Below, piece after piece: positions 1-13,900 of a DNA stretch of 64,000 bases (position 1 is the first letter of the stretch; the number at the start of each line of letters is the position of its first letter). The DNA lies in contig CAVZDU010000002.1 of NCBI GenBank assembly GCA_963774265.1, forward strand, positions 96,001 to 160,000, in the 5' to 3' direction. Source of the DNA: an uncultured Chloroflexia bacterium (GTDB lineage Bacteria; Chloroflexota; Anaerolineae; CG2-30-64-16). The position numbers and the translations under genes are program-made. Under the pieces are notes generated by a model. It saw nothing but the letters and a program-made list of their open reading frames with translations. It had not been told where the DNA came from and made no database searches.

Positions 1-621
1 AAGTGAGTACTTACATACTCGTCGTCATATGGTTCGTACTGACGGTTCCACGTCGCGACAATCCGTACTTTGAATACAAGAGCAACATGTCATGAACGGA
101 GGCACAGCGTCGCGGCTGCGTTCCCGTGTGCTGATGTGCGCTTCCAAACAATCTCATTTCGGAAGTTGACCGGGCCGAAAATGGTGTCGAGCACGATCTT
201 CAAATAGTGGCTGGCGGTCGGGTCACAGTGCAGGTAGAGGCTGCCGGTCGGCTTCAGCACCCGGTGCAGTTCCACCAGCCGCGCGGCCATCATCACGAGG
301 TACGCCATCATCTGGTTTTCCCCGATGAAGTCGCGCAGCGCGCGCAATCATCTTGCCTACATCGGTCGGGGCATCCGTAACCAGTTCGGCGTAGGTATCC
401 TCCGCTTGCTCCCCCCAATGCCAGGTATCGTCAAAGGCGACAAGCTGTGACTCTGACTGCTTCCCGCTTTCGTCCCTGAATAGCACGTTGTAAGAACGGT
501 TCGAGTTGAAAGGCGGGTCAAGATAGATCAGGTCAACGCTTTCGGTCGGGATGTGTTCGCGCAGGATCGGCAGGTTGTCACCGTAGAAAAGCGTGTTGCT
601 CGTGATCGGTTTTGGACTCAT
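1..621 (-). CDS. Site-specific DNA methyltransferase (N4/N6 family), 3' part runs off the window; frameshifted
   Basis: ATG at 621 gives MSPKPITSNTLFYGDNL...VDLIYLDPPFNS (DPPF catalytic motif). After a +1 shift near 348 it continues YLVMMAARLVELHRVLKPTGSLYLHCDPTASHYLK...FRNEIVWKR. Further indels near 60-115. Confidence 0.9.
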
Positions 622-693
622 GGCATACCCTACTATGCAACGGGTGAGGTTCACAAAGTATAGCACCTGGGCGAAAGACGTGCAACGAAGGGC

Positions 694-747
694 TTGACAG
701 TGGCCTCAAATGGCTGTATTGTACAAAACGTCAATACGTTCTGTACA
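694..747 (+). promoter_or_regulatory. Sigma70 promoter of the recombinase overlapped by a res-like palindrome
   Basis: TTGACA(694-699)-17 bp-TATTGT(717-722). Inverted repeat TGTACAAAACGT-CAAT-ACGTTCTGTACA at 720-747. Confidence 0.65.
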
Positions 748-768
748 CAGACCTAAGAGGGGGGCATC

Positions 769-1602
769 ATGGCGCGCCGCAAGGTCCCAAACGGGGTGAA
801 CGGACAGACAACAATACCGGAAGCATGTACCGGGGCTTATATCCGCGTCTTCACTGACAAGCAAGCCGACGAAGGCTTTTCCCTCGATGCCCAGCGCAAA
901 CGCGTTGCGGCCTATTGTGTGGCACAGGGTTGGACGCTATGTCCCGAACACGTCTATGTGGACGCTGGCTTATCCGGCAAGACCTCAGACCGTCCGCAGT
1001 TCCGGGCGATGCTGAGAGCGGCGCAAGAGGGACGAATACAACGTGTCGTGTCCGTCAAGCTGGATCGGCTCGCCCGCAACACGAAGGACTTTCTGGCGAC
1101 CGTTGACCTGCTGCAAGGGTTGGGTTGTGATCTCGTGCTTATCAAAGAGAGCTTTGACACGTCCACCCCACAGGGCAAGTTTGCACTCACCATGTTTGCG
1201 GCCCTGGCCGAGTTGGAAGTGCCCATGATTGCGGAGCGTACCATGTCGGGCCGGGTGCAGAAGGCGGCGCAGGGCGGGTACAATGGTGCACCTGTGCCTT
1301 TTGGGTATAACTACGACGGGAAGGCTTTTACGGCGAACGCCCATGCCGAGACGGTGCGGAGCATCTTCGCTGACTTCCTGGCAGGTAAGACCATGCGGCA
1401 GATTGCGGCAAGCCTTAACGCTAAGGGGACACCCACGGCAAGGGGGGGTAAGTGGTACGCGTCAACTGTGGCTTATGTCCTTCACAATGGCTTTTATGCT
1501 GGCTTCATTCAGTACAACGGCAGCGAAGTCATGGGAGAACACACCACACTTGTGAGCGTGGAAGATTACGAACGGGCAAACCAAGGCAGTTCGACACCAT
1601 GA
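769..1602 (+). CDS. Serine recombinase (resolvase + recombinase domain), catalytic Ser replaced by Phe
   Basis: Motifs YIRVFTDKQ (canonical YxRVSTxxQ), SGKTSDRPQF, KLDRLAR, DTSTPQGK, PFGY. No C-terminal zinc ribbon/coiled coil. Confidence 0.9.
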   Translation: MARRKVPNGVNGQTTIPEACTGAYIRVFTDKQADEGFSLDAQRKRVAAYCVAQGWTLCPEHVYVDAGLSGKTSDRPQFRAMLRAAQEGRIQRVVSVKLDRLARNTKDFLATVDLLQGLGCDLVLIKESFDTSTPQGKFALTMFAALAELEVPMIAERTMSGRVQKAAQGGYNGAPVPFGYNYDGKAFTANAHAETVRSIFADFLAGKTMRQIAASLNAKGTPTARGGKWYASTVAYVLHNGFYAGFIQYNGSEVMGEHTTLVSVEDYERANQGSSTP

Positions 1603-1701
1603 GTTGGACATGCAAGCATCAAAACCACCGAGCGTTATCTTGGCGTCACCCAGGACCTACAGGACGCACCTTGCGACCACTTGGGGTTGCGGCTGGAGTA
1701 A
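1603..1701 (+). pseudogene. C-terminal remnant of a tyrosine recombinase/integrase
   Basis: Translates VGHASIKTTERYLGVTQDLQDAPCDHLGLRLE*, the LGHxSIxTTxxY box II motif with the catalytic Tyr. Not in the ORF track. Confidence 0.8.
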
Positions 1702-1725: not shown

Positions 1726-2454
1726 GTGATTTATTCCAACGAACCGAATAATTAGCATGATTTGCAGGATAAGGTTTGTTCGATTCTCCAGGTCTGTGGT
1801 TTCCAGGCCGAGGTAGATAGAACTATCGACACCGTTCGAGGTCCCGTAGACATCGACGTTCACGCCATCGACGAGACATGAAACCCCGAGCAGGCATGCC
1901 TGTGTGAATGCAAGCACTGGAGCAGTGCTGTGCCCAAGACGGTCGTGCACGCCTTCCGAACCGTGGTGACGGATGACGGCGCCAACATCGGATTTATGAT
2001 TTCGCGCTCTGGCTTTCAAAAGGGGGCCTATGAGGCCGCGGAGAAGTCAAATGTCCACCTGGTCGATTGGTACGAATTCCAGGCGCTCTTTCTTGAGCGT
2101 TGGAAGGAGGGGCGCTACGCGGGGCTTCGCCCACTCTTTGAAGAGCACTTTGACTTCTACGACTTCCTCTCCAAACCCATCCTAAATGCCATTAGCGGGG
2201 ACGAAAGCGCAAGGGAGTATAACTTACTGAGGGAGCGGTGAGCTCCGCAGGCCGCTGGAAACCCTTGGATGCACATGGTCCATCCTCAGGACTTCCCGCC
2301 CACGCTGCCATGTTGCGCTACCGAAATCGACAATGACGGCAGCAGGAGAGATTTGGAGTTCGTCGACTATGCTTCGTACTTCGATTGGCAAGAAGTTCGT
2401 TTGCGGGCGGGCATCCGCGAGTTCGAGGAGTTTATTGAGCGAAGGTCAGTTTGA
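1726..2454 (+). pseudogene. Mrr-like/PD-(D/E)xK restriction endonuclease with three in-frame stops
   Basis: RBS AGGAGG then GTG 1726. A single frame reads MIYSNEPNN*HDLQDKVCSIL...VDIDVHA...T*NPE...LCECKHW...GFMISRSGFQKGAYEAA...ER*APQ. Stops: TAG 1753, TGA 1879, TGA 2239. Confidence 0.8.
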
Positions 2455-2479
2455 CAGCACCCGTGACTGGTGCTAATGT
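2451..2479 (+). promoter_or_regulatory. Sigma70 promoter (extended -10) with an inverted repeat in the spacer
   Basis: TTGACA(2451-2456)-17 bp-TAATGT(2474-2479) preceded by TGn. AGCACC...GGTGCT inverted repeat at 2456-2474. Confidence 0.6.
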
Positions 2480-2495
2480 GGGGCTAGAATTTGAC

Positions 2496-2616
2496 GCCCG
2501 ATGGATGCAGCGAACATCCACCGGGCTAGGCGCAAGTGTGGTAGCACGTTACACCCGGAGCGATTATAACGGACGCTCGTGCTAGGCCACAAACGGCAGC
2601 ACGGGCGTTTTTGTTT
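2496..2616 (+). ncRNA. Structured leader/attenuator-like RNA motif, copy 1
   Basis: Hairpin GCCCGATGGATG/CATCCACCGGGC, then AGGCGCAA, GTG-loop-CAC hairpin, GCGATTATA, and terminator GACGCTCGTGCT...AGCACGGGCGTT-TTTGTTT. Homologous to 4157-4273. Confidence 0.6.
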
Positions 2617-2699
2617 GACGAGAACGGTTAGGCAGGTGACAACGTGTGCGGCCTCCTACCGGTTATTCCTTAAAACCACTGTTTGGATAGTCACGAATA

Positions 2700-2746
2700 C
2701 TACAACTTGTAGTGGTTTGCGAGCGAACACCTACTACATGTCGTAC
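2700..2746. promoter_or_regulatory. Tandem NrdR-box-like palindromes, 31-bp period
   Basis: CTACAACTTGTAGTGG (2700-2715) and CTACTACATGTCGTAC (2731-2746) resemble the NrdR consensus acaCwAtATaTwGtgt. Confidence 0.5.
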
Positions 2747-2750
2747 CCAA

Positions 2751-2836
2751 GTCGTCCGGTGGCAGCCCCGGTCTTCAAAACCGGTGTGGGGCGGTAGGCC
2801 CGGCTCAGATGAGTTCGACTCTCATCCACTCCCGCC
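2751..2836 (+). tRNA. selC: tRNA-Sec (anticodon TCA) lacking its 5' acceptor strand
   Basis: D arm GTCGTC-CGGT-GGCAGC; anticodon arm CCGGT-CTTCAAA-ACCGG (TCA 2775-2777); long variable arm; T arm ATGAG-TTCGACT-CTCAT; acceptor 3' strand CCACTCCC-GCC. The expected 5' GGGAGTGG is replaced by TCGTACCC. Confidence 0.85.
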
Positions 2837-2914
2837 TACACGCCTATTTATGCCTGTAAGCGCCTGTATTTTATGGATAGACCGGTGTGGTCCTTGAACC
2901 TTCATCTTAGGGCC

Positions 2915-2948
2915 AGACGGGGGCCGCCACCGGATGACAACCACTCCC
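2915..2948 (-). tRNA. selC: 5' half of tRNA-Sec on the opposite strand (acceptor 5' strand + D arm + 5' anticodon stem)
   Basis: Minus strand reads GGGAGTGG-TT-GTCATC-CGGT-GGCGGC-CCCCGT-CT. GGGAGTGG is the exact complement of CCACTCCC at 2826-2833, and 21/24 nt match 2751-2774. Confidence 0.8.
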
Positions 2949-3243
2949 ACGAGTTGGTTGCCCTGAACCCGAACTTCCTTTGGCCTTCGAGACAACGATA
3001 ATTTTCTCAAGCGCTGCTTTTCCAGGTCATTCCACAATGTTGTACTGCTCAATATTGCACCATACAGGGCGCTGGTTGGCAAGGGTGCAAGATGTGCCGC
3101 AGCCTGCGTAATTATCCGCATCCTCATGCGTTGTGTATTGTGGCACTAGTGGCGATGGATAAATAGTGTTCCGTGCAAGACAAGACAATATAAACTACCA
3201 GAGAAGCCTGGAGGCTTCCGAGCAGGGAGGCAAAGAAGAACCA

Positions 3244-4065
3244 ATGATAGCGAGTGGATGGTTAAGTTGGCTGGCCGTCATGCTGGCGTTAGTCCTCAGC
3301 AGCGTTACAGCCGGGGGACCGGGAAAGGTATGGATGCCTTTGTTGGAGAGAGCCCCCGACCCTCCGAAGCTGGGGATCGCCGGTGCGACACCCGCACAAG
3401 TCAAGGCATTGGGCGGCAGTTGGTATCACAACTTTGGCTCGTCGCCTGAGAGCGCAGGGGGCGTCGAAGCGGTGCCGATGATATTTGGCAGGGATGTGCC
3501 ACAGAAGGTCGGCGGCAACTCGGCGTACCTGTTGGGGATGAACGAACCCGATAAGGGCGGGGGGGCAAACCTGACGCCAGAGGAGGGCGCACAAGTCTGG
3601 CGCAAGATCGAGCTTGCGTTCCCCGATAAGTTGCTGGTATCGCCACAGCCAAGCCATGAAGACCCGGAATGGTTAGTGCGCTTCCGGGAGGCGTACAGGG
3701 CCGCGTATGGGCGGTGGCCCAGGTTGGACGGCCTGGCGATGCACTGCTACATCCCGGAACCAGGGGGATGTATCGCCTTAGGGCAGAAGTATGTAGGATG
3801 GGCGCGAGCCTGGGGTGTGGGCCAAATCTGGGTGACCGAATTCTCTTATTTGCCGAAGTGGGCGCCAAATGCGGAGGCGCAGACGCGCGAGTTCGTCGCC
3901 TGGCTGGAGGCTGAACCGTTGGTGAAGCGGTACGCCCCGTGGACGTCCTACATTCGGGGCGGGGAGCCGTACTGGCCGCATACCGATCCGGGGACCAATC
4001 CGTCGCTGTTCACCGGACCGACAAGCACGGAGCTAACAGCAATGGGACGGTGGTACAAGCGGTAG
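3244..4065 (+). CDS. Secreted glycoside hydrolase, GH128/Glyco_hydro_cc-like (beta-1,3-glucanase-like)
   Basis: Signal peptide; motifs WYHNF, VPMIFG, LLGMNEPD (acid/base), AMHCY, IWVTEF (nucleophile), RYAPW. Confidence 0.8.
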   Translation: MIASGWLSWLAVMLALVLSSVTAGGPGKVWMPLLERAPDPPKLGIAGATPAQVKALGGSWYHNFGSSPESAGGVEAVPMIFGRDVPQKVGGNSAYLLGMNEPDKGGGANLTPEEGAQVWRKIELAFPDKLLVSPQPSHEDPEWLVRFREAYRAAYGRWPRLDGLAMHCYIPEPGGCIALGQKYVGWARAWGVGQIWVTEFSYLPKWAPNAEAQTREFVAWLEAEPLVKRYAPWTSYIRGGEPYWPHTDPGTNPSLFTGPTSTELTAMGRWYKR

Positions 4066-4104
4066 GACGCGCCAATCCTTGAAAGGCCAATTATGCGAAA
4101 TGAC

Positions 4105-4134
4105 TTGACAACGCGGCGCACCTCGTGATAGGGT
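4105..4134 (+). promoter_or_regulatory. Sigma70 promoter (extended -10)
   Basis: TTGACA(4105-4110)-18 bp-TAGGGT(4129-4134) with TGn upstream. Confidence 0.5.
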
Positions 4135-4156
4135 AGTGCCGAACTTCTAAAGAGAT

Positions 4157-4273
4157 GCCGGGGCAAGTGCGGAAACACTCACCCCGGCAGGCGCAACAGT
4201 GGTGTAAGCACTGAGAGCCAAGGGCGATTATACAAGGCGCTCGTGCTAGACCGCAAGGTTGCACGAGCGTTTC
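4157..4273 (+). ncRNA. Structured leader/attenuator-like RNA motif, copy 2
   Basis: Hairpin GCCGGGG..AGTG/CACT..CCCCGGC, then AGGCGCAA, CAGTG/CACTG hairpin, GCGATTATA, and GGCGCTCGTGCTAGACCGCAAGGTTGCACGAGCGTTT. Same order of elements as copy 1. Confidence 0.6.
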
Positions 4274-4316
4274 TCATCCCGCCTGTCCCCGTTGCGTGAA
4301 ACCCATAAGGATGCAA

Positions 4317-6095
4317 ATGAGCGCGATCACCGGCCCGCACATCATCAATGGCGCCGGCCCCTGGCTGGACAGGCTCAAACGGTTGCAGCCCAGTCTGGCC
4401 CTCTTCCTGGACCCCAACGTTGACGATGTACGCGCCTTTGGAAAGGCCTGCCCGAACACCGTCACCGTCGGCCGCATCTATGTACCGGATAGCGAAGTCG
4501 ACAGCCGAATCCGGGCCAACCCAGAGGAAGCCGCCCAATGGGCGCATAATCTTGTCATGGCCCACCCCGCGCGCAGCGTCATCGACTACTGGCAAGTCGC
4601 GAACGAGGTGCTTCAGTTCTCGGACGGCCTGCCACTCCTGAGCCGCTTTGAGCTGCGACGCATGCAACTCGCCGATGCCCCGGGCTACAAGTGCGGCATT
4701 CTGGCCTTCAGTGTGGGCCAACCCGATATGCCGGTTACTGATCGTATGGCACTCTGGCGCCAGGTCTACCCGGCGCTGGAGTACGCCGAGGCTCACAGCC
4801 ACATCCTGCTGCTCCACCAGTACGGGGCACCGGATCTGTGGGGGCCAGCCGCCAAGGGTGGGGCAGATTGGTTGATCGACCGCTACCAGAAGCAGGTTCT
4901 GCCCCGATTGCCGTTCTCACGCCTCAAGGCCGCTGTGGTCGAGACCGGCATCGACGGCCTACTGCTGGATGGCCTGGAGAGTAGTGCCCTTCAGGCTTTC
5001 GGTGAACCAGAAGAGTTCGGCGTTGGCGTCTGGACCCCACCCAAGGATCCCTACTTCAAAGTCGAGGAGGCTATGCCTGGAGAGCTGTCCCTGGCCGCCG
5101 GACCGGCCGGCTGGATGAAGTTCACCACGGCGACCGACTACGCCCAACAACTCATTAGCATCGGCCTTTACCACGAGCAGTGGGCCGACCGCATCATCGG
5201 CTACGCCGTGTTCACTCTCGGGCATAACTCGCCTTGGAGCACTTACGACATAGGCGAACAGGGCAACTCGAACGACGTTCTCGGCCTGTTGGCCGCCTAC
5301 TATGAACAGGCCGGCCCGGTGACTCCGGAGCCGCCCACTGGAGGAGCTGTGGAAACGAAAATCTTCGACAAGGACGGCACCGAACGCGACGCCAACTGGC
5401 TGAAAACGAACTACGGAACCGTTATCGTGCCGGCTGCAATGACCAGCGGTTTGAAGTTCATCCTGGCCAAAATCCAGGTCACCGAAGGCCCCGCCACGCT
5501 CATCGTGCGGGTGAATAACGCAGCCAATAACCAGCCGCTGGCCCAACAAGCTGTGGCCTTCTCCTGGCCGGACGCGCCCACCGATCTGACGACCGACGCG
5601 GCGTCCGTCTTCAAAACCCTTTTCAAGCCCCGCGCCAACGTCCAGTGGACTGACAGCAACGGCGTCACCGGCTTTGGTCTGGGGACCGGCAGCTATATCT
5701 ACGACGCCAACACGGGGGGTCCACACGCTGTCTGGTTGCTGCACAACCTATACCCGTCCGACGCACTAGATAAGCTCGGCATGTTGGCCGGCACAGAACA
5801 TCGCGGCCCACTGGACCTGACCTTCGTGCTGGCCAATGCCGAGATCGTTGTTCAACCGGCTGACCTGGAACAAACCATCCGCGACGCAACCTGGCAGAAG
5901 GTCGGTGTGCCCTTTAATCCGGACGCCGCGTTCCCTAAGTATGCCCGGGCGCACGGCCTGGGTTCACCCGTACCCGGCACCGGCGAGTTCGACATCCGCA
6001 TCAACGGTGTCGACTATCGCGTTCAGCCCTTCGTGGGCGGCATCGTCTATTGCGTGATCGGCGATTGGGGCAACGTCAAACACATGCAGTGGTAA
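4317..6095 (+). CDS. Multidomain protein with N-terminal GH-A-like TIM barrel and C-terminal cell-wall-associated-type domain
   Basis: RBS TAAGGA before ATG 4317. Motifs WQVANEV and VVETG resemble the two catalytic Glu of clan GH-A. Pro-rich linker; C-terminal NPDAAFPKYARAHGLG...GDWGNV domain. Confidence 0.6.
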   Translation: MSAITGPHIINGAGPWLDRLKRLQPSLALFLDPNVDDVRAFGKACPNTVTVGRIYVPDSEVDSRIRANPEEAAQWAHNLVMAHPARSVIDYWQVANEVLQFSDGLPLLSRFELRRMQLADAPGYKCGILAFSVGQPDMPVTDRMALWRQVYPALEYAEAHSHILLLHQYGAPDLWGPAAKGGADWLIDRYQKQVLPRLPFSRLKAAVVETGIDGLLLDGLESSALQAFGEPEEFGVGVWTPPKDPYFKVEEAMPGELSLAAGPAGWMKFTTATDYAQQLISIGLYHEQWADRIIGYAVFTLGHNSPWSTYDIGEQGNSNDVLGLLAAYYEQAGPVTPEPPTGGAVETKIFDKDGTERDANWLKTNYGTVIVPAAMTSGLKFILAKIQVTEGPATLIVRVNNAANNQPLAQQAVAFSWPDAPTDLTTDAASVFKTLFKPRANVQWTDSNGVTGFGLGTGSYIYDANTGGPHAVWLLHNLYPSDALDKLGMLAGTEHRGPLDLTFVLANAEIVVQPADLEQTIRDATWQKVGVPFNPDAAFPKYARAHGLGSPVPGTGEFDIRINGVDYRVQPFVGGIVYCVIGDWGNVKHMQW

Positions 6096-10920: not shown

Positions 10921-13900
10921 CTACCTGAGCGTCAAGTTATGCCGAATCGGACCGCGGTTATCCCATGATTGCCGATCGCCGATCTCAACCTTTCCCAGTG
11001 TGAAGACCACCTGTCTTCCCGGGCTGCCGCAATCGCTCTGCACGCCCGGCTCAGCGGCAGACACCTTCAGTACATAGCGGAGTTCCCCAGGGGCGTCACC
11101 GGCCATCACTGCCCCAATCCCACAGGTCACCCCATCGACCAGCGCGGTCACTTGCGCGCCTTCAGCCGTTCCTGCTGTCCCATCGATCGAGCCGTAATAC
11201 ACCGCGGGTGGGTTCCGCCGCCCGAACGCAACAACTGATCCTGGCTGGCTTGACGCCAATGCGCTCGATTGACCAGCCGTAAGCGGGATTCTCATACGGA
11301 GCACCAGCGGTTGATCCTGCGTCGGCTTCGCCGGCCCGACAATATTGATCCAGTATCCGCGGCCATATTCCAGCCTGGACAGGTCACTCACCCACGGAGG
11401 GGCGGCTGCATCAAAGACGGACCACGGGTCACCCGCATCATCGTTGTCATAGGCATAGATGGTCGTATAGTGCCCGATGATGGACTTCAGCGCCTCAGTC
11501 ACCGGACGGCTTTCGGGCAAGGGATAGGCGAAGAGATTCCAGCCGCTGGTGTAGAAGGGGAGATCGACGCTGGCCGCCAAGACGTATAAGCCGGATTCAG
11601 TCGCAGAGGCTGTGGCGGTGTTCTCTTCAGAATCCAGATCAGTCGCCAATGCCTGCCAAACTCGACCTTCGTCAGGTGAGAAATACAGCGTCAAGGCGTG
11701 TTCGTAACCTGGCGGGGCTTCGCGCTGCAGATAGTTGAAAGCAATACTACGAGGCACCTTGCTGTTTGCGATGAAGCGATAGCCGCGCCCGACCGGGGTT
11801 AGCCATTCCGGGAGGCCCGGAATGACCGCCAGCGCTTCCAGGGAAAGGGTGCCCGTGTCGTCGAGCACGTTGCTGCGGTTAAAGATGGTTACCTGGCCAT
11901 CGGACGAGCCCATCGGTGCGCCCAGAGCGCGCCGGTTGGCGCCCCAGGCGCGCGCATCCGCGCCCAAGCCGGGTCGACCTGATGCGCCCAAGCCGGGTCG
12001 ACCTGATGCACCCAGACCGGGTCGGCCTGATGCACCCAGACCGGGTCGGCCTGACGCACCCAGACCGGGTCGGCCTGATGCACCCAGACCGGGTCGGCCT
12101 GACGCACCCAGACCGGGTCGACCTGACGCACCGGACCCACTCTGCCAGGCAACGCCGAAGCCCGGTCTGTTCGTCGCCTGACCGCGTTCGAGCGTATCTT
12201 GGCCAGGTGGTTGTGCCTCTAACCAGGCGTCTGCAAGATCCCGGGCGACCCCAGTCCTCGGTCAGGAAGAACTGACTGACACTCTCTCGAAGGACCTGTG
12301 CTTCCGTGGTGCCCGGGACCCAGACGCGCACAAACCCGGATGGCACCCGTGCTTGCAGCGGAATCACACCTGAATAAACGAGGGGATTGGCAGGGTCTAC
12401 AAACGAGAGTTGACCGTAAACGGCTCCGGTTGGGTCGCCGCCTGCGGGATCAAACGCAGGGAGAACCTGGGCGTAGAGTTGCTGCGCCGATAGTAGCGGT
12501 TGCTCCAAGGTGACTGTGATTGCGATCCCAGGCTGGAACAGATCGACGGGACGCGCACTCTCCACCGTGGCCGTCACAGGCGAGCGAGCGCCGGCGGGGG
12601 GTGGCAACGGTTCGTTGGGGAGTGCCACCGGCGCAACTTGCAGGCTCGGCCGCCACCCTGACCATTGCCGCAGCGTCACACTTGCGCTCCACGGCCGGAT
12701 CTGCTCGCATCCCCAGAGCGGCGGCTGGTGGCTATCGTCGTAAGCACAAACACGGTCGCCCTCGCGCGCCCCTCGAACCCGAACGCGGTCACTCCGCACG
12801 ATGGGTCCCAGAGCCATGATGCGATCGTCCACCAACGAGTTCGTCCCGTAACGCTCGACGAGATATGCCTGGCCTTGTGACAGGCTCAGCCGGGCACCAT
12901 CGTCGCTGCGGAGATCGAAGTTGCGGGATGGCAGCACGCTGGACGGCGATGACGGGTCCATGAACAAGATGCGCGTGACGTCGATCGGCAAGGTGCTCGG
13001 TCCGGGGTTTTGGCGCGGGCTTAGCATGCCGTAGTACTGCGATATCGTCTGCCAATCGGATCTGCCGGTGAGACGGGCCGCGATGGAACGGGCACAGTCA
13101 GCCGAGGGCGACCATTCGGCGGCAGTAAGGAACTCGCTGTAGCTGTCTTCGTACGTATTGGTCATGAAACTGCCCTTGCAGTCTACGCCAACGATATAGC
13201 CGTTATCGTTATACCCCAGGTAGTTGTCGGGCAGAAACAAGAAGTGATGGCCATATTCATGGGCAAGCGCGCGCGACCAGTCACTTGTAAGGTCCGCTCG
13301 GCTTTCGCCAAACGGATCCCAAGCCGGCCCCATCCGAATTTGGCCAGGCCAGAAAGCGTTTGTGATGACCTGCGTCGCGCTGATTATGTCGTCGGTGGGT
13401 TGCGACACCACCCCACCCAACGTCGCGCGCGGCCTAATGCCGCTGCTGGCATAAATGACAGCATCTGCGTTAAGCCAGTCATCACCCGCCTGGAAAACAC
13501 GCACGTCGCCTAGCGCAATCTGGCCATCGCCAACATCGTACAGGGTCTCGGAGGAGCGGATGATCGCCTGTTCCAGGTCATCCAGGAAGGTCCCATCGTT
13601 GCGCGCATCCCATTCCAGCGAGACATCAAGATTGAAGAGCACCAGCGGGTTGGCCTTCGATACGACCAATCTTTGGATGCCGGGCCCCGCGACCTCGGCC
13701 ATCGACAGGCCTGTGCGATTCGGCGATGCGCTGGTATAGTAAAGCGTATAGCTGTATGTCTGTGTGACAGGCCAGAGCGCGACCAATCGGTCGCCAAGTC
13801 CGGTCTCCGCACGGCCCTGCAGGAAGCCAAGGGCATTGGTCAGCAGCGGCTCTCCTGCCTCATTGGCCAGCGGCTGGCCGCCTGAGGTTTCGCCGGCGCG

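Follow-up and report, generated by a model that had tools for sequence, protein, structure and literature searches.

What kind of RNA, if any, is encoded by two similar leader-like segments in a 64-kb window (the whole stretch of 64,000 nucleotides analysed here) of the genome of a Chloroflexota bacterium? A preliminary description had taken them for copies of a structured RNA, either an antisense-controlled attenuator or a riboswitch-like leader. The segments are homologous and diverged, each consisting of a sense promoter, a hairpin (P1), a second hairpin (P2) and a terminator. Within the window, blastn aligned copy 1 with copy 2 (73.6% identity over 87 columns, E=1.6e-6) and found no third copy, and the local alignment score of the copies was reached by none of approximately 2000 random window segments, so the shared architecture described earlier is real and not due to chance. 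A covariance model (R1), built from the two sequences with their flanks and with an imperfect automatic structure, gave full matches only to the two copies in 139 kb searched. The motifs of the preliminary description all lie where it had placed them, and ATTATA is TATAAT on the minus strand of both copies:

TTGACA: 2451 in copy 1, 4105 in copy 2
AGGCGCAA: 2528 in copy 1, 4189 in copy 2
G(A/G)GCG: 2558 in copy 1, 4222 in copy 2
ATTATA: 2563 in copy 1, 4227 in copy 2
CGCTCGTGCT: 2574 in copy 1, 4238 in copy 2
Terminator 3' arm: 2599 in copy 1, 4261 in copy 2

The predicted sense promoters match TTGACA..TG.TA...T, a pattern with three sites in the window (two being the copies), and are followed by the hairpins and by three short antiterminator blocks:

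2451..2479, plus strand: copy 1 sense promoter (TTGACA, 17 nt, TG-n-TAATGT with extended -10; predicted start near 2486)
4105..4134, plus strand: copy 2 sense promoter (TTGACA, 18 nt, TG-n-TAGGGT; predicted start near 4141)
2496..2526, both strands: copy 1 P1 hairpin (11 bp, -17.3 kcal/mol on plus; 13 bp with two G-U, -24.0 on minus), a candidate for the hairpin at the 3' end of the antisense RNA
4157..4188, both strands: copy 2 P1 hairpin (11 bp, -19.7 on plus; 14 bp with three G-U, -25.9 on minus)
2528..2562, plus strand: copy 1 AGGCGCAA, P2 (2536-2547) and antiterminator blocks (GTGGT 2538-2542, AGCAC 2543-2547, GAGCG 2558-2562)
4189..4226, plus strand: copy 2 AGGCGCAA, P2 (4197-4213) and antiterminator blocks (GTGGT 4199-4203, AGCAC 4207-4211, GGGCG 4222-4226)

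The internal mismatches of P1 on the plus strand are all of the A-C type (3/3) and turn into G-U pairs on the minus strand, and each terminator carries its G-U on the plus strand, opposite to P1. P1 thus folds better on the minus strand and the terminator on the plus strand, which is what synthesis of both RNAs would predict. The outer helix of P2 is the more stable on the minus strand in copy 1 (-11.5 vs -5.1) but not in copy 2 (-8.5 vs -9.7). The earlier observation that stems differ while pairing is kept applies to P1 (20 of 33 columns identical) and to the outer pairs of P2, but not to the main stem of the terminator, in which 8 of 9 pairs never vary.

The minus-strand TATAAT is one half of a putative antisense promoter, the other half of which sits inside the terminator loop:

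2563..2592, minus strand: copy 1 antisense promoter (TTGTGG 2592-2587, 18 nt, TATAAT 2568-2563), the spacer being the terminator 5' arm
4227..4256, minus strand: copy 2 antisense promoter (TTGCGG 4256-4251, 18 nt, TATAAT 4232-4227)
2490..2556, minus strand: copy 1 predicted antisense RNA (approximately 61-69 nt, two hairpins, -36.4 to -37.6 kcal/mol; ends deduced from the -10 box)
4148..4220, minus strand: copy 2 predicted antisense RNA (approximately 65-73 nt, two hairpins, U-rich tail)

The agreement of the -35 boxes with the consensus is limited to TTG, at 18 nt from TATAAT in both copies; the pattern TTG-N20/21-TATAAT occurs at three sites on both strands of the 64 kb, two of which are the copies, and the linker after the -10 box shares only one base of five. 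Thus convergent sense and antisense promoters, as pattern matches, flank an untranslated leader in both copies. Lacking a U-tract after P1, the copy 1 antisense RNA has an uncertain 3' end; P1 of copy 2 was called a minus-strand terminator by a simple terminator scan. Given the start site deduced from the -10 box, the predicted RNA overlaps both GTGGT and AGCAC but neither GRGCG nor the terminator, and an antisense RNA of 60-75 nt that covers two antiterminator blocks would favour termination by the logic of pT181 and Inc18.

The same scan did not flag either of the sense terminators, which fold as follows:

2574..2616, plus strand: copy 1 terminator (hairpin 2574-2607, -21.1 kcal/mol; T-tract 2608-2616)
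4238..4277, plus strand: copy 2 terminator (hairpin 4238-4269, -20.6 kcal/mol; weak T-tract, TTTCTCAT)

In computed folds of both copies, this intrinsic terminator is mutually exclusive with an antiterminator in which GTGGT, AGCAC and GRGCG pair with the terminator 5' arm and loop, with 15 of 15 pairs in the same columns; slid controls gave 23-43%, a comparison biased toward the antiterminator because the structure was derived from the same two sequences. Between the copies the antiterminator has three changes, all one-sided and all keeping the pairing; two-sided changes, counted on n=2 sequences, number zero in the antiterminator and one in the terminator; the upstream blocks are 14/15 identical, vs 3/15 in the two flanking unpaired stretches (counted on the alignment). 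The duplex of P2 with the terminator arm (-17.5 in copy 1 and -16.2 in copy 2) was equalled by 25 and 79 of 3000 random segments, and the GRGCG/CGCTC helix alone (-8.9 and -7.8 kcal/mol) by 202 and 298 of 3000. The GRGCG/CGCTC helix that the preliminary description named is the weakest of three in a larger predicted structure, and the main antiterminator, as modelled, is P2 itself.

When the leader was folded stepwise, the antiterminator kept a pair probability of at least 0.8 until the last 3 nt of the terminator 3' arm had been made; with the antisense-covered region masked, the terminator began to form several nt earlier and the masked folds gave the terminator. A pT181 positive control, folded identically, also held its antiterminator until the terminator was almost complete. 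At equilibrium the full leader favours the terminator (-50.3 vs -41.3 in copy 1; -60.1 vs -45.8 in copy 2), as do hand-built structures (antiterminator vs terminator, -35.4 vs -40.9 in copy 1 and -37.8 vs -42.9 in copy 2), and read-through would therefore have to be kinetic.

These properties make it reasonably probable that each copy forms a complete transcription attenuator under the control of antisense RNA, derived from a mobile element of some Chloroflexota bacterium. A leader of approximately 130 nt would be transcribed from the sense promoter; without antisense RNA, P2 would open while the terminator 5' arm emerges, GUGGU and AGCAC, aided by GRGCG, would pair with the terminator arm and loop, and the terminator would be unable to nucleate in time, letting the polymerase read on. 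The opposite-strand promoter, embedded in the terminator DNA, would yield a two-hairpin RNA of 60-75 nt complementary to P1 and P2, which on the nascent leader would sequester P2, so that the terminator folds and transcription stops. Recognition would presumably occur between loops; since the two copies do not share their P1 and P2 loops, each sense/antisense pair should have a specificity of its own.

Attenuators of this kind have precedents. The order of parts is that of pT181 and pAMbeta1. In pT181 (ctRNA, RF00242; layout on NC_001393) there are likewise a two-hairpin sense leader, an antisense promoter between target and terminator, and a two-hairpin antisense RNA, and an upstream strand, the pre-emptor, pairs with the terminator 5' arm (PMC5703833), as is predicted for the module described here. 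However, the pT181 leader measures approximately 190 nt (approximately 130 nt here) and has no sequence match to the module; 18 nt separate its antisense -35 (4224-4229) from the terminator (4248), whereas here spacer and -35 are the terminator arm and loop; its first hairpin supplies the antiterminator as a single long helix, whereas here three 5-bp blocks come from the second hairpin and start-site region; and the module lies on no plasmid replicon and has no rep gene. Our own reading of pAMbeta1 (Inc18), a region without an Rfam match, reveals convergent promoters, a sense ATTATA (748) after the hairpin region, a -35-like box (772), a terminator with a T-tract (807-837) and then a gene (ATG 871). 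In the accounts of Inc18 plasmids consulted (pIP501, pAMbeta1), RNAIII/RNAII comprises a 329-bp leader, a 136-nt antisense RNA and the CopR repressor (PMC4981023); the module, with its leader of approximately 130 nt, has no cop or rep gene. Before non-rep genes, antisense RNA promotes premature termination in pCF10 (Anti-Q/prgQ) and Shigella (RnaG/icsA), according to the portions of the literature consulted (PMC3181467, PMC2879508), RnaG being given as 450 nt (PMC3185424). Those RNAs differ from the module in being longer, tied to protein regulators and from other phyla, their sequence relation having been compared only through the plasmid blastn. The C4 (P1/P7) and CI (P4) phage RNAs (RF01695) are also small structured RNAs of mobile elements with two recognition loops. 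They are released by cleavage from RNA of the strand that also carries their targets and have a second target site downstream, whereas the module's RNA would be a true countertranscript, with no Rfam match and no significant second target; the C4 family is listed in PMC2864571. The proposal of an antisense-controlled attenuator is partly supported, and it gains support from the fixed TTG-18-TATAAT, the G-U strand switch, the larger antiterminator beneath the antisense RNA, and the part order of pT181 and pAMbeta1.

The surroundings bear on whether the module still works. To the left of copy 1 the genes are broken (a restriction-endonuclease ORF with three in-frame stops, a split methylase and an integrase tail), and the chromosomal island that carries the module is decayed; no replication gene follows the module. 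Three features lie downstream of or between the copies:

2749..2837, plus strand: tRNA-Sec fragment that aligns to positions 10-82 of the 91 in the model and lies approximately 135 nt beyond copy 1
3244..4065, plus strand: Glyco_hydro_cc (PF11790) gene, whose end lies 40 nt to the left of copy 2
4317..6095, plus strand: the gene that copy 2 would control, encoding a 592-aa modular protein with a glycoside-hydrolase fold

Copy 1 faces tRNA-Sec, as had been noted, although the piece is a fragment that scores 42.4 bits (gathering score, 47), lacks the 5' acceptor strand and was not called as a whole tRNA; it is probably an attachment-site remnant. Pfam, PHROG and other searches yielded no recognisable gene behind copy 1, where a 53-aa ORF has no homologue of similar length. 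An 8-mer of the copy 1 P1 loop is found again at 2722. The glycoside-hydrolase-like gene reported behind copy 2 is borne out by the fold of the 592-aa protein, which has no Pfam, PHROG or tblastn match and many of whose relatives have M23 peptidase or amidase domains.

Relatives of the module were sought in several ways. Rfam gave no match in the whole window at gathering level and three at E up to 10 in 2300-4400, none over either copy. An exact pattern of the -10 box and terminator 5' arm, which would miss diverged members, was scanned against one representative genome each of 185,579 species and hit nine loci, none with P1, P2 or the terminator 3' arm and two being coding sequence of Ktedonobacteria; these loci do not include the window's own genome, and close relatives may therefore be absent from the collection. 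Against phages and plasmids, blastn of each copy yielded at most short matches, with E no lower than 0.6, and blastn of an 851-nt region matched only tRNA-Sec sequence. R1 found no third copy in the window and loci L001-L009. Its 62 matches on Promineifilum plasmid III, which is phage-like, were all weak and all without the architecture; the best reached 14.6 bits, compared with 222 bits for the copies. No homologue outside the window was thus found by the one narrow genome scan and the phage and plasmid blastn.

The decay to the left, this want of relatives with the pattern used, the one weak terminator tail in each copy (the sense T-tract of copy 2, the antisense end of copy 1) and the terminator stems with similar letters in the Promineifilum element are what would be expected of a non-functional relic or of a small MITE/REP-like dispersed repeat, both copies having come from a single promoter-terminator segment and resembling each other by descent only. 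That explanation is rather unlikely, given that only two copies exist in 64 kb, with neither a terminal inverted repeat nor a shared flanking duplication, and that conservation tracks promoter boxes and pairings blockwise, unlike neutral drift. Such conservation indicates that the module was functional, from which present function does not follow, and copy 1, if not both copies, may be a relic.

Less probable is that the functional product is the minus-strand small RNA, acting in trans (in immunity or antitoxin-like) against a related incoming element, with the sense leader a constitutively terminated counter-transcript. The better z-scores of the minus-strand two-hairpin fold (P1-P2 part, -6.4 in copy 1 and -5.6 in copy 2; plus strand, -2.7 and -5.1) would suit it, as would the equilibrium preference for the terminator and the lack of a real gene behind copy 1, but it leaves unexplained the 15-bp complementarity of the three upstream blocks to the terminator arm; a second target for the antisense loops was not significant (37, 100, 142 and 203 of 300 random regions were equal), and an ORF comparison found no small or leader ORF common to the copies.

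Least probable of the three is an attenuator that senses a ligand or protein (a T-box-like element, a riboswitch or an antiterminator-protein site), in which case TATAAT on the minus strand would be incidental. It could claim the leader-terminator layout with exclusive folds, the position of copy 2 ahead of a carbohydrate-hydrolase-fold gene, and AGGCGCAA, kept 8/8 and mostly unpaired on the sense strand; in copy 1, however, AGGCGCAA is accounted for by an 8-bp minus-strand helix in the fold, and the fixed TATAAT and TTG beside a scarcely shared linker, the stronger opposite-strand pairing of P1, the differing P1 loops and the absence of an Rfam family at E up to 10 all oppose it. The riboswitch-like alternative of the preliminary description is unsupported because there is no Rfam match and pairing and promoter boxes explain the conserved blocks. 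Other classes did not fit: MITE/REP-like repeats (no terminal inverted repeats, target duplication or many copies within the window), known riboswitches or T-boxes (no match to curated Rfam aptamer or T-box models), C4/CI RNAs (no Rfam match or significant separate same-strand target), type I toxin-antitoxin loci (no common ORF; no homologue of similar length for the 53-aa ORF), pT181/Inc18 membership (the ctRNA model detects pT181 itself and nothing here; no replication initiator gene downstream), and T-box, c-di-GMP-I and antiterminator-protein sites, presumed candidates by resemblance (no Rfam match, wrong helix order).

Antisense RNA-induced attenuation switches are known mainly from plasmids. 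In the parts of the literature consulted, they are described for plasmids of Bacillota and one Shigella gene (PMC4981023, PMC5703833, PMC2879508, PMC3181467), and a literature search, within the parts of sources consulted, met no report of such an RNA in Chloroflexota. The mechanism is a known one, here possibly a relic; judged from sequence, what appears new relative to pT181 and Inc18 is the shorter leader, the antisense promoter embedded in the terminator and the lack of a rep gene, and the weight of the claim is limited by there being only two copies in a decayed region. It is a speculative and on the whole unlikely extension of the attenuator reading that Chloroflexota phages or integrative elements carry a family of very compact attenuators, with the antisense promoter within terminator DNA and variable loops as immunity groups, gating not rep but a cell-wall-hydrolase (lysis-type) gene or transcription that crosses the attachment site and enters the excised circle at its far end, and that retained chromosomal copies could silence cognate incoming elements in trans. 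Orthogonal attenuators are in short supply for synthetic circuits, as indicated in the part of one source consulted (PMC3753616), and the module, if working, would offer two natural sense/antisense pairs of approximately 130 nt with different loops. If working, it would also extend antisense RNA-induced attenuation to another phylum and to non-replication cargo.

Two diverged copies of one short DNA module, each with a predicted sense promoter, two hairpins (P1 and P2) and a terminator, were found where the preliminary description had placed them, at approximately 2451-2616 (copy 1) and 4105-4277 (copy 2). They are 73.6% identical over 87 columns (E=1.6e-6 in a comparison inside the window), an alignment score attained by none of approximately 2000 random window segments. 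Identity is blockwise and amounts to 30 of 53 columns in the promoter region, 20 of 33 in P1, 23 of 35 in the junction and P2, and 27 of 34 in the terminator; the flanks match at 25/55 and 26/54 columns, with many gaps. Self-comparison and a covariance model built from the two copies found no third copy in the window, and the proposed Rfam check gave no family over either copy, neither at gathering level nor at E values up to 10. The module is a genuine feature.

Both copies carry predicted promoters on both strands. On the plus strand, TTGACA is followed by TG-n-TAnnnT, a pattern present three times in the window. The minus-strand TATAAT of the preliminary description is present in both copies, each with a TTG box 18 nt upstream that corresponds to the conserved CAA of the terminator loop, to which no role had been given. 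TTG-N20/21-TATAAT occurs at three sites in 64 kb, both strands counted, and two of these are the module copies. A simple promoter scan did not flag the minus-strand promoters of either copy, because their -35 boxes match in three bases only. The sense-promoter spacers (2456-2475 and 4115-4140) share a GCACC-CGTGA-like motif, offset by approximately 7 nt relative to TTGACA and forming an inverted repeat in copy 1, which is a possible operator.

The internal mismatches of P1 on the plus strand (one in copy 1, two in copy 2) are all of A-C type and become G-U pairs on the minus strand, giving stems of 13 and 14 bp that are 6-7 kcal/mol more stable, whereas each terminator has one G-U pair on the plus strand. 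Such a switch of strand preference within one element, small as the numbers are, is the pattern to be expected where an antisense RNA overlaps a sense leader. From approximately 7 nt past the -10 box, the minus strand is predicted to fold into two hairpins (61-73 nt); the P1 of copy 2 was scored as a terminator on this strand, and that of copy 1 has no U-tract there. The predicted antisense RNAs pair much better with their own leaders (-149 and -163) than with the other copy's leader (-68 and -65) because the copies have diverged, so that this comparison is no test of specificity.

The mutually exclusive fold proposed earlier, GRGCG with CGCTC of the terminator 5' arm, exists as one of three blocks, but is weak by itself (202 and 298 of 3000 random segments do as well), and its probability in simulated elongation is at most 0.24 and 0.40. 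P2 is the stronger partner of the terminator arm (-17.5 and -16.2 kcal/mol, values reached in 25 and 79 of 3000 random segments and in 13 and 30 of 3000 shuffles). Together, GTGGT, AGCAC and GRGCG complement the entire terminator 5' arm and most of its loop (15/15 pairs in both copies); 12 of the 15 pairs are invariant between copies, three have one-sided changes that keep pairing, and none has two-sided changes. The blocks are identical at 14 of 15 positions against 3 of 15 in two unpaired stretches alongside, a count for blocks picked after inspection, part of which also form P2. When successive 3' ends were folded, the antiterminator had a probability of at least 0.8 up to 2604 (copy 1) and of 1.0 up to 4266 (copy 2), after which the terminator prevailed; pT181, folded identically, shows the same late flip. 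Because the 3'-terminal 9-14 nt of a nascent transcript are buried in RNA polymerase, the antiterminator would still hold as the enzyme reaches the T-tract. At equilibrium the terminator is favoured by 9 and 14 kcal/mol, so the ON state would be kinetic. When the region covered by the antisense RNA was kept from pairing, the terminator top formed by 2600 (copy 1) and 4262 (copy 2). Without antisense RNA, the three blocks would pair with the terminator 5' arm and loop, permitting read-through past the T-tract; antisense RNA bound to the leader would make the antiterminator region unavailable, and the terminator would form earlier.

With its two predicted convergent promoters, strand switch and three-block antiterminator, the module is probably best explained as an antisense-controlled attenuator, as first suggested; selection for a sense/antisense pair has very probably shaped it. 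A relic or repeat is improbable, a trans-acting small RNA encoded by the module slightly more so, and a ligand or protein sensor the least likely.

Relatives of this putative antisense-controlled attenuator were not found by blastn against phages and plasmids, nor by the covariance model on loci L001-L009, outside the window, and on a phage-like Promineifilum plasmid; an exact-pattern scan of GTDB representatives gave nine loci, none with the module architecture. The motif is absent from the available portions of the main text of PMC5737381, PMC2864571, PMC7430163 and PMC3753616, and the accessible parts of the literature yielded no report of an antisense attenuator RNA of this sort in Chloroflexota. 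The terminase, capsid and head genes of Promineifilum breve plasmid III (L012; NZ_LN890657.1, 1-40759) suggest that it is a phage or phage-plasmid; short inverted and direct repeats are clustered across the start of its record.

The region to the left of copy 1 is, judging from its sequence, a decayed island:

90-666 (-), frameshifted (split) DNA methylase
694-1602 (+), serine recombinase of 277 aa with Resolvase and Recombinase domains
1603-1701 (+), C-terminal end (32 residues) of an integrase-like gene, abutting the serine recombinase stop
1726-2454, Mrr-like restriction-endonuclease ORF, its single frame interrupted by three stops

A promoter-like site was noted with the serine recombinase, the integrase-like tail has a motif that we take to be that of a tyrosine integrase, and the final stop of the restriction-endonuclease ORF overlaps the TTGACA of copy 1. 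Copy 1 had been said to point into a tRNA-Sec junction; tRNA-Sec sequence does lie approximately 135 nt past it (2749-2837, +), but as a fragment without the 5' acceptor strand. Elements that integrate at tRNA genes leave attachment-site remnants there, and the fragment, truncated as such a remnant should be, is probably one. The 53-aa ORF between copy 1 and the fragment had no homologue of similar length. A second piece (2914-2948, -), comprising the 5' acceptor strand, D arm and start of the anticodon stem, faces the first; the two have 24 nt in common (88% alike, inverted, 140 nt apart), and 10 nt of the anticodon/variable arm recur at 2881-2890. The arrangement suggests that an attachment site was rearranged or that an inversion split a tRNA gene, or may be an assembly error. 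Directly before the fragment (2698-2745), a 14-nt sequence occurs twice in direct orientation at a distance of 34 nt, and its first occurrence is itself an inverted repeat around a 3-nt centre; these are possible repressor or integrase arm sites. The P1 loop of copy 1 is repeated at 2722-2734 (11/13; the exact 8-mer is present three times in the window), and was rejected as an antisense target since 37 of 300 random regions do equally well. Elsewhere, ORFs at 11889-12152 with a repeated 7-residue unit suggest a tandem repeat of approximately 21 nt at a gene junction.

Copy 2 is located 40 nt past a Glyco_hydro_cc gene and approximately 45 nt ahead of a gene encoding a 592-aa protein, which has no Pfam or PHROG match. 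Its description as glycoside-hydrolase-like agrees with its predicted structure (mean pLDDT 86), which matches glycoside hydrolases (E about 2e-6, 10-17% identity). Chloroflexota and viral clusters are among the Atlas neighbours of its N-terminal 330 residues; among its 81 relatives, those named are from Chloroflexi, Litorilinea and Caldilineaceae, which makes a Caldilineaceae-like member of the Chloroflexota the probable host, and many have PF01551, a few PF01510 or PF11860 (presumably M23 peptidase, amidase and muramidase domains, respectively). The protein may plausibly be a cell-wall hydrolase derived from a phage.

According to the available portions of the respective reports, the 87-nt countertranscript of pT181 brings about termination at a stem-loop, the 5' arm of which is otherwise engaged by a pre-emptor lying upstream (PMC5703833), pIP501 combines a 136-nt RNA, a 329-bp leader and CopR (PMC4981023), and Anti-Q (PMC3181467) and RnaG (PMC2879508) apply antisense attenuation to non-rep genes. 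The module resembles these systems in every computable feature, and the plasmid records of pT181 and pAMbeta1 have the order hairpins, antisense -10, antisense -35, terminator, gene. It matches no family model and has no rep gene, which places it outside the pT181/Inc18 families. It differs from these systems in being shorter, in having its predicted antisense promoter within terminator DNA, and in building its antiterminator as three blocks from the second hairpin.
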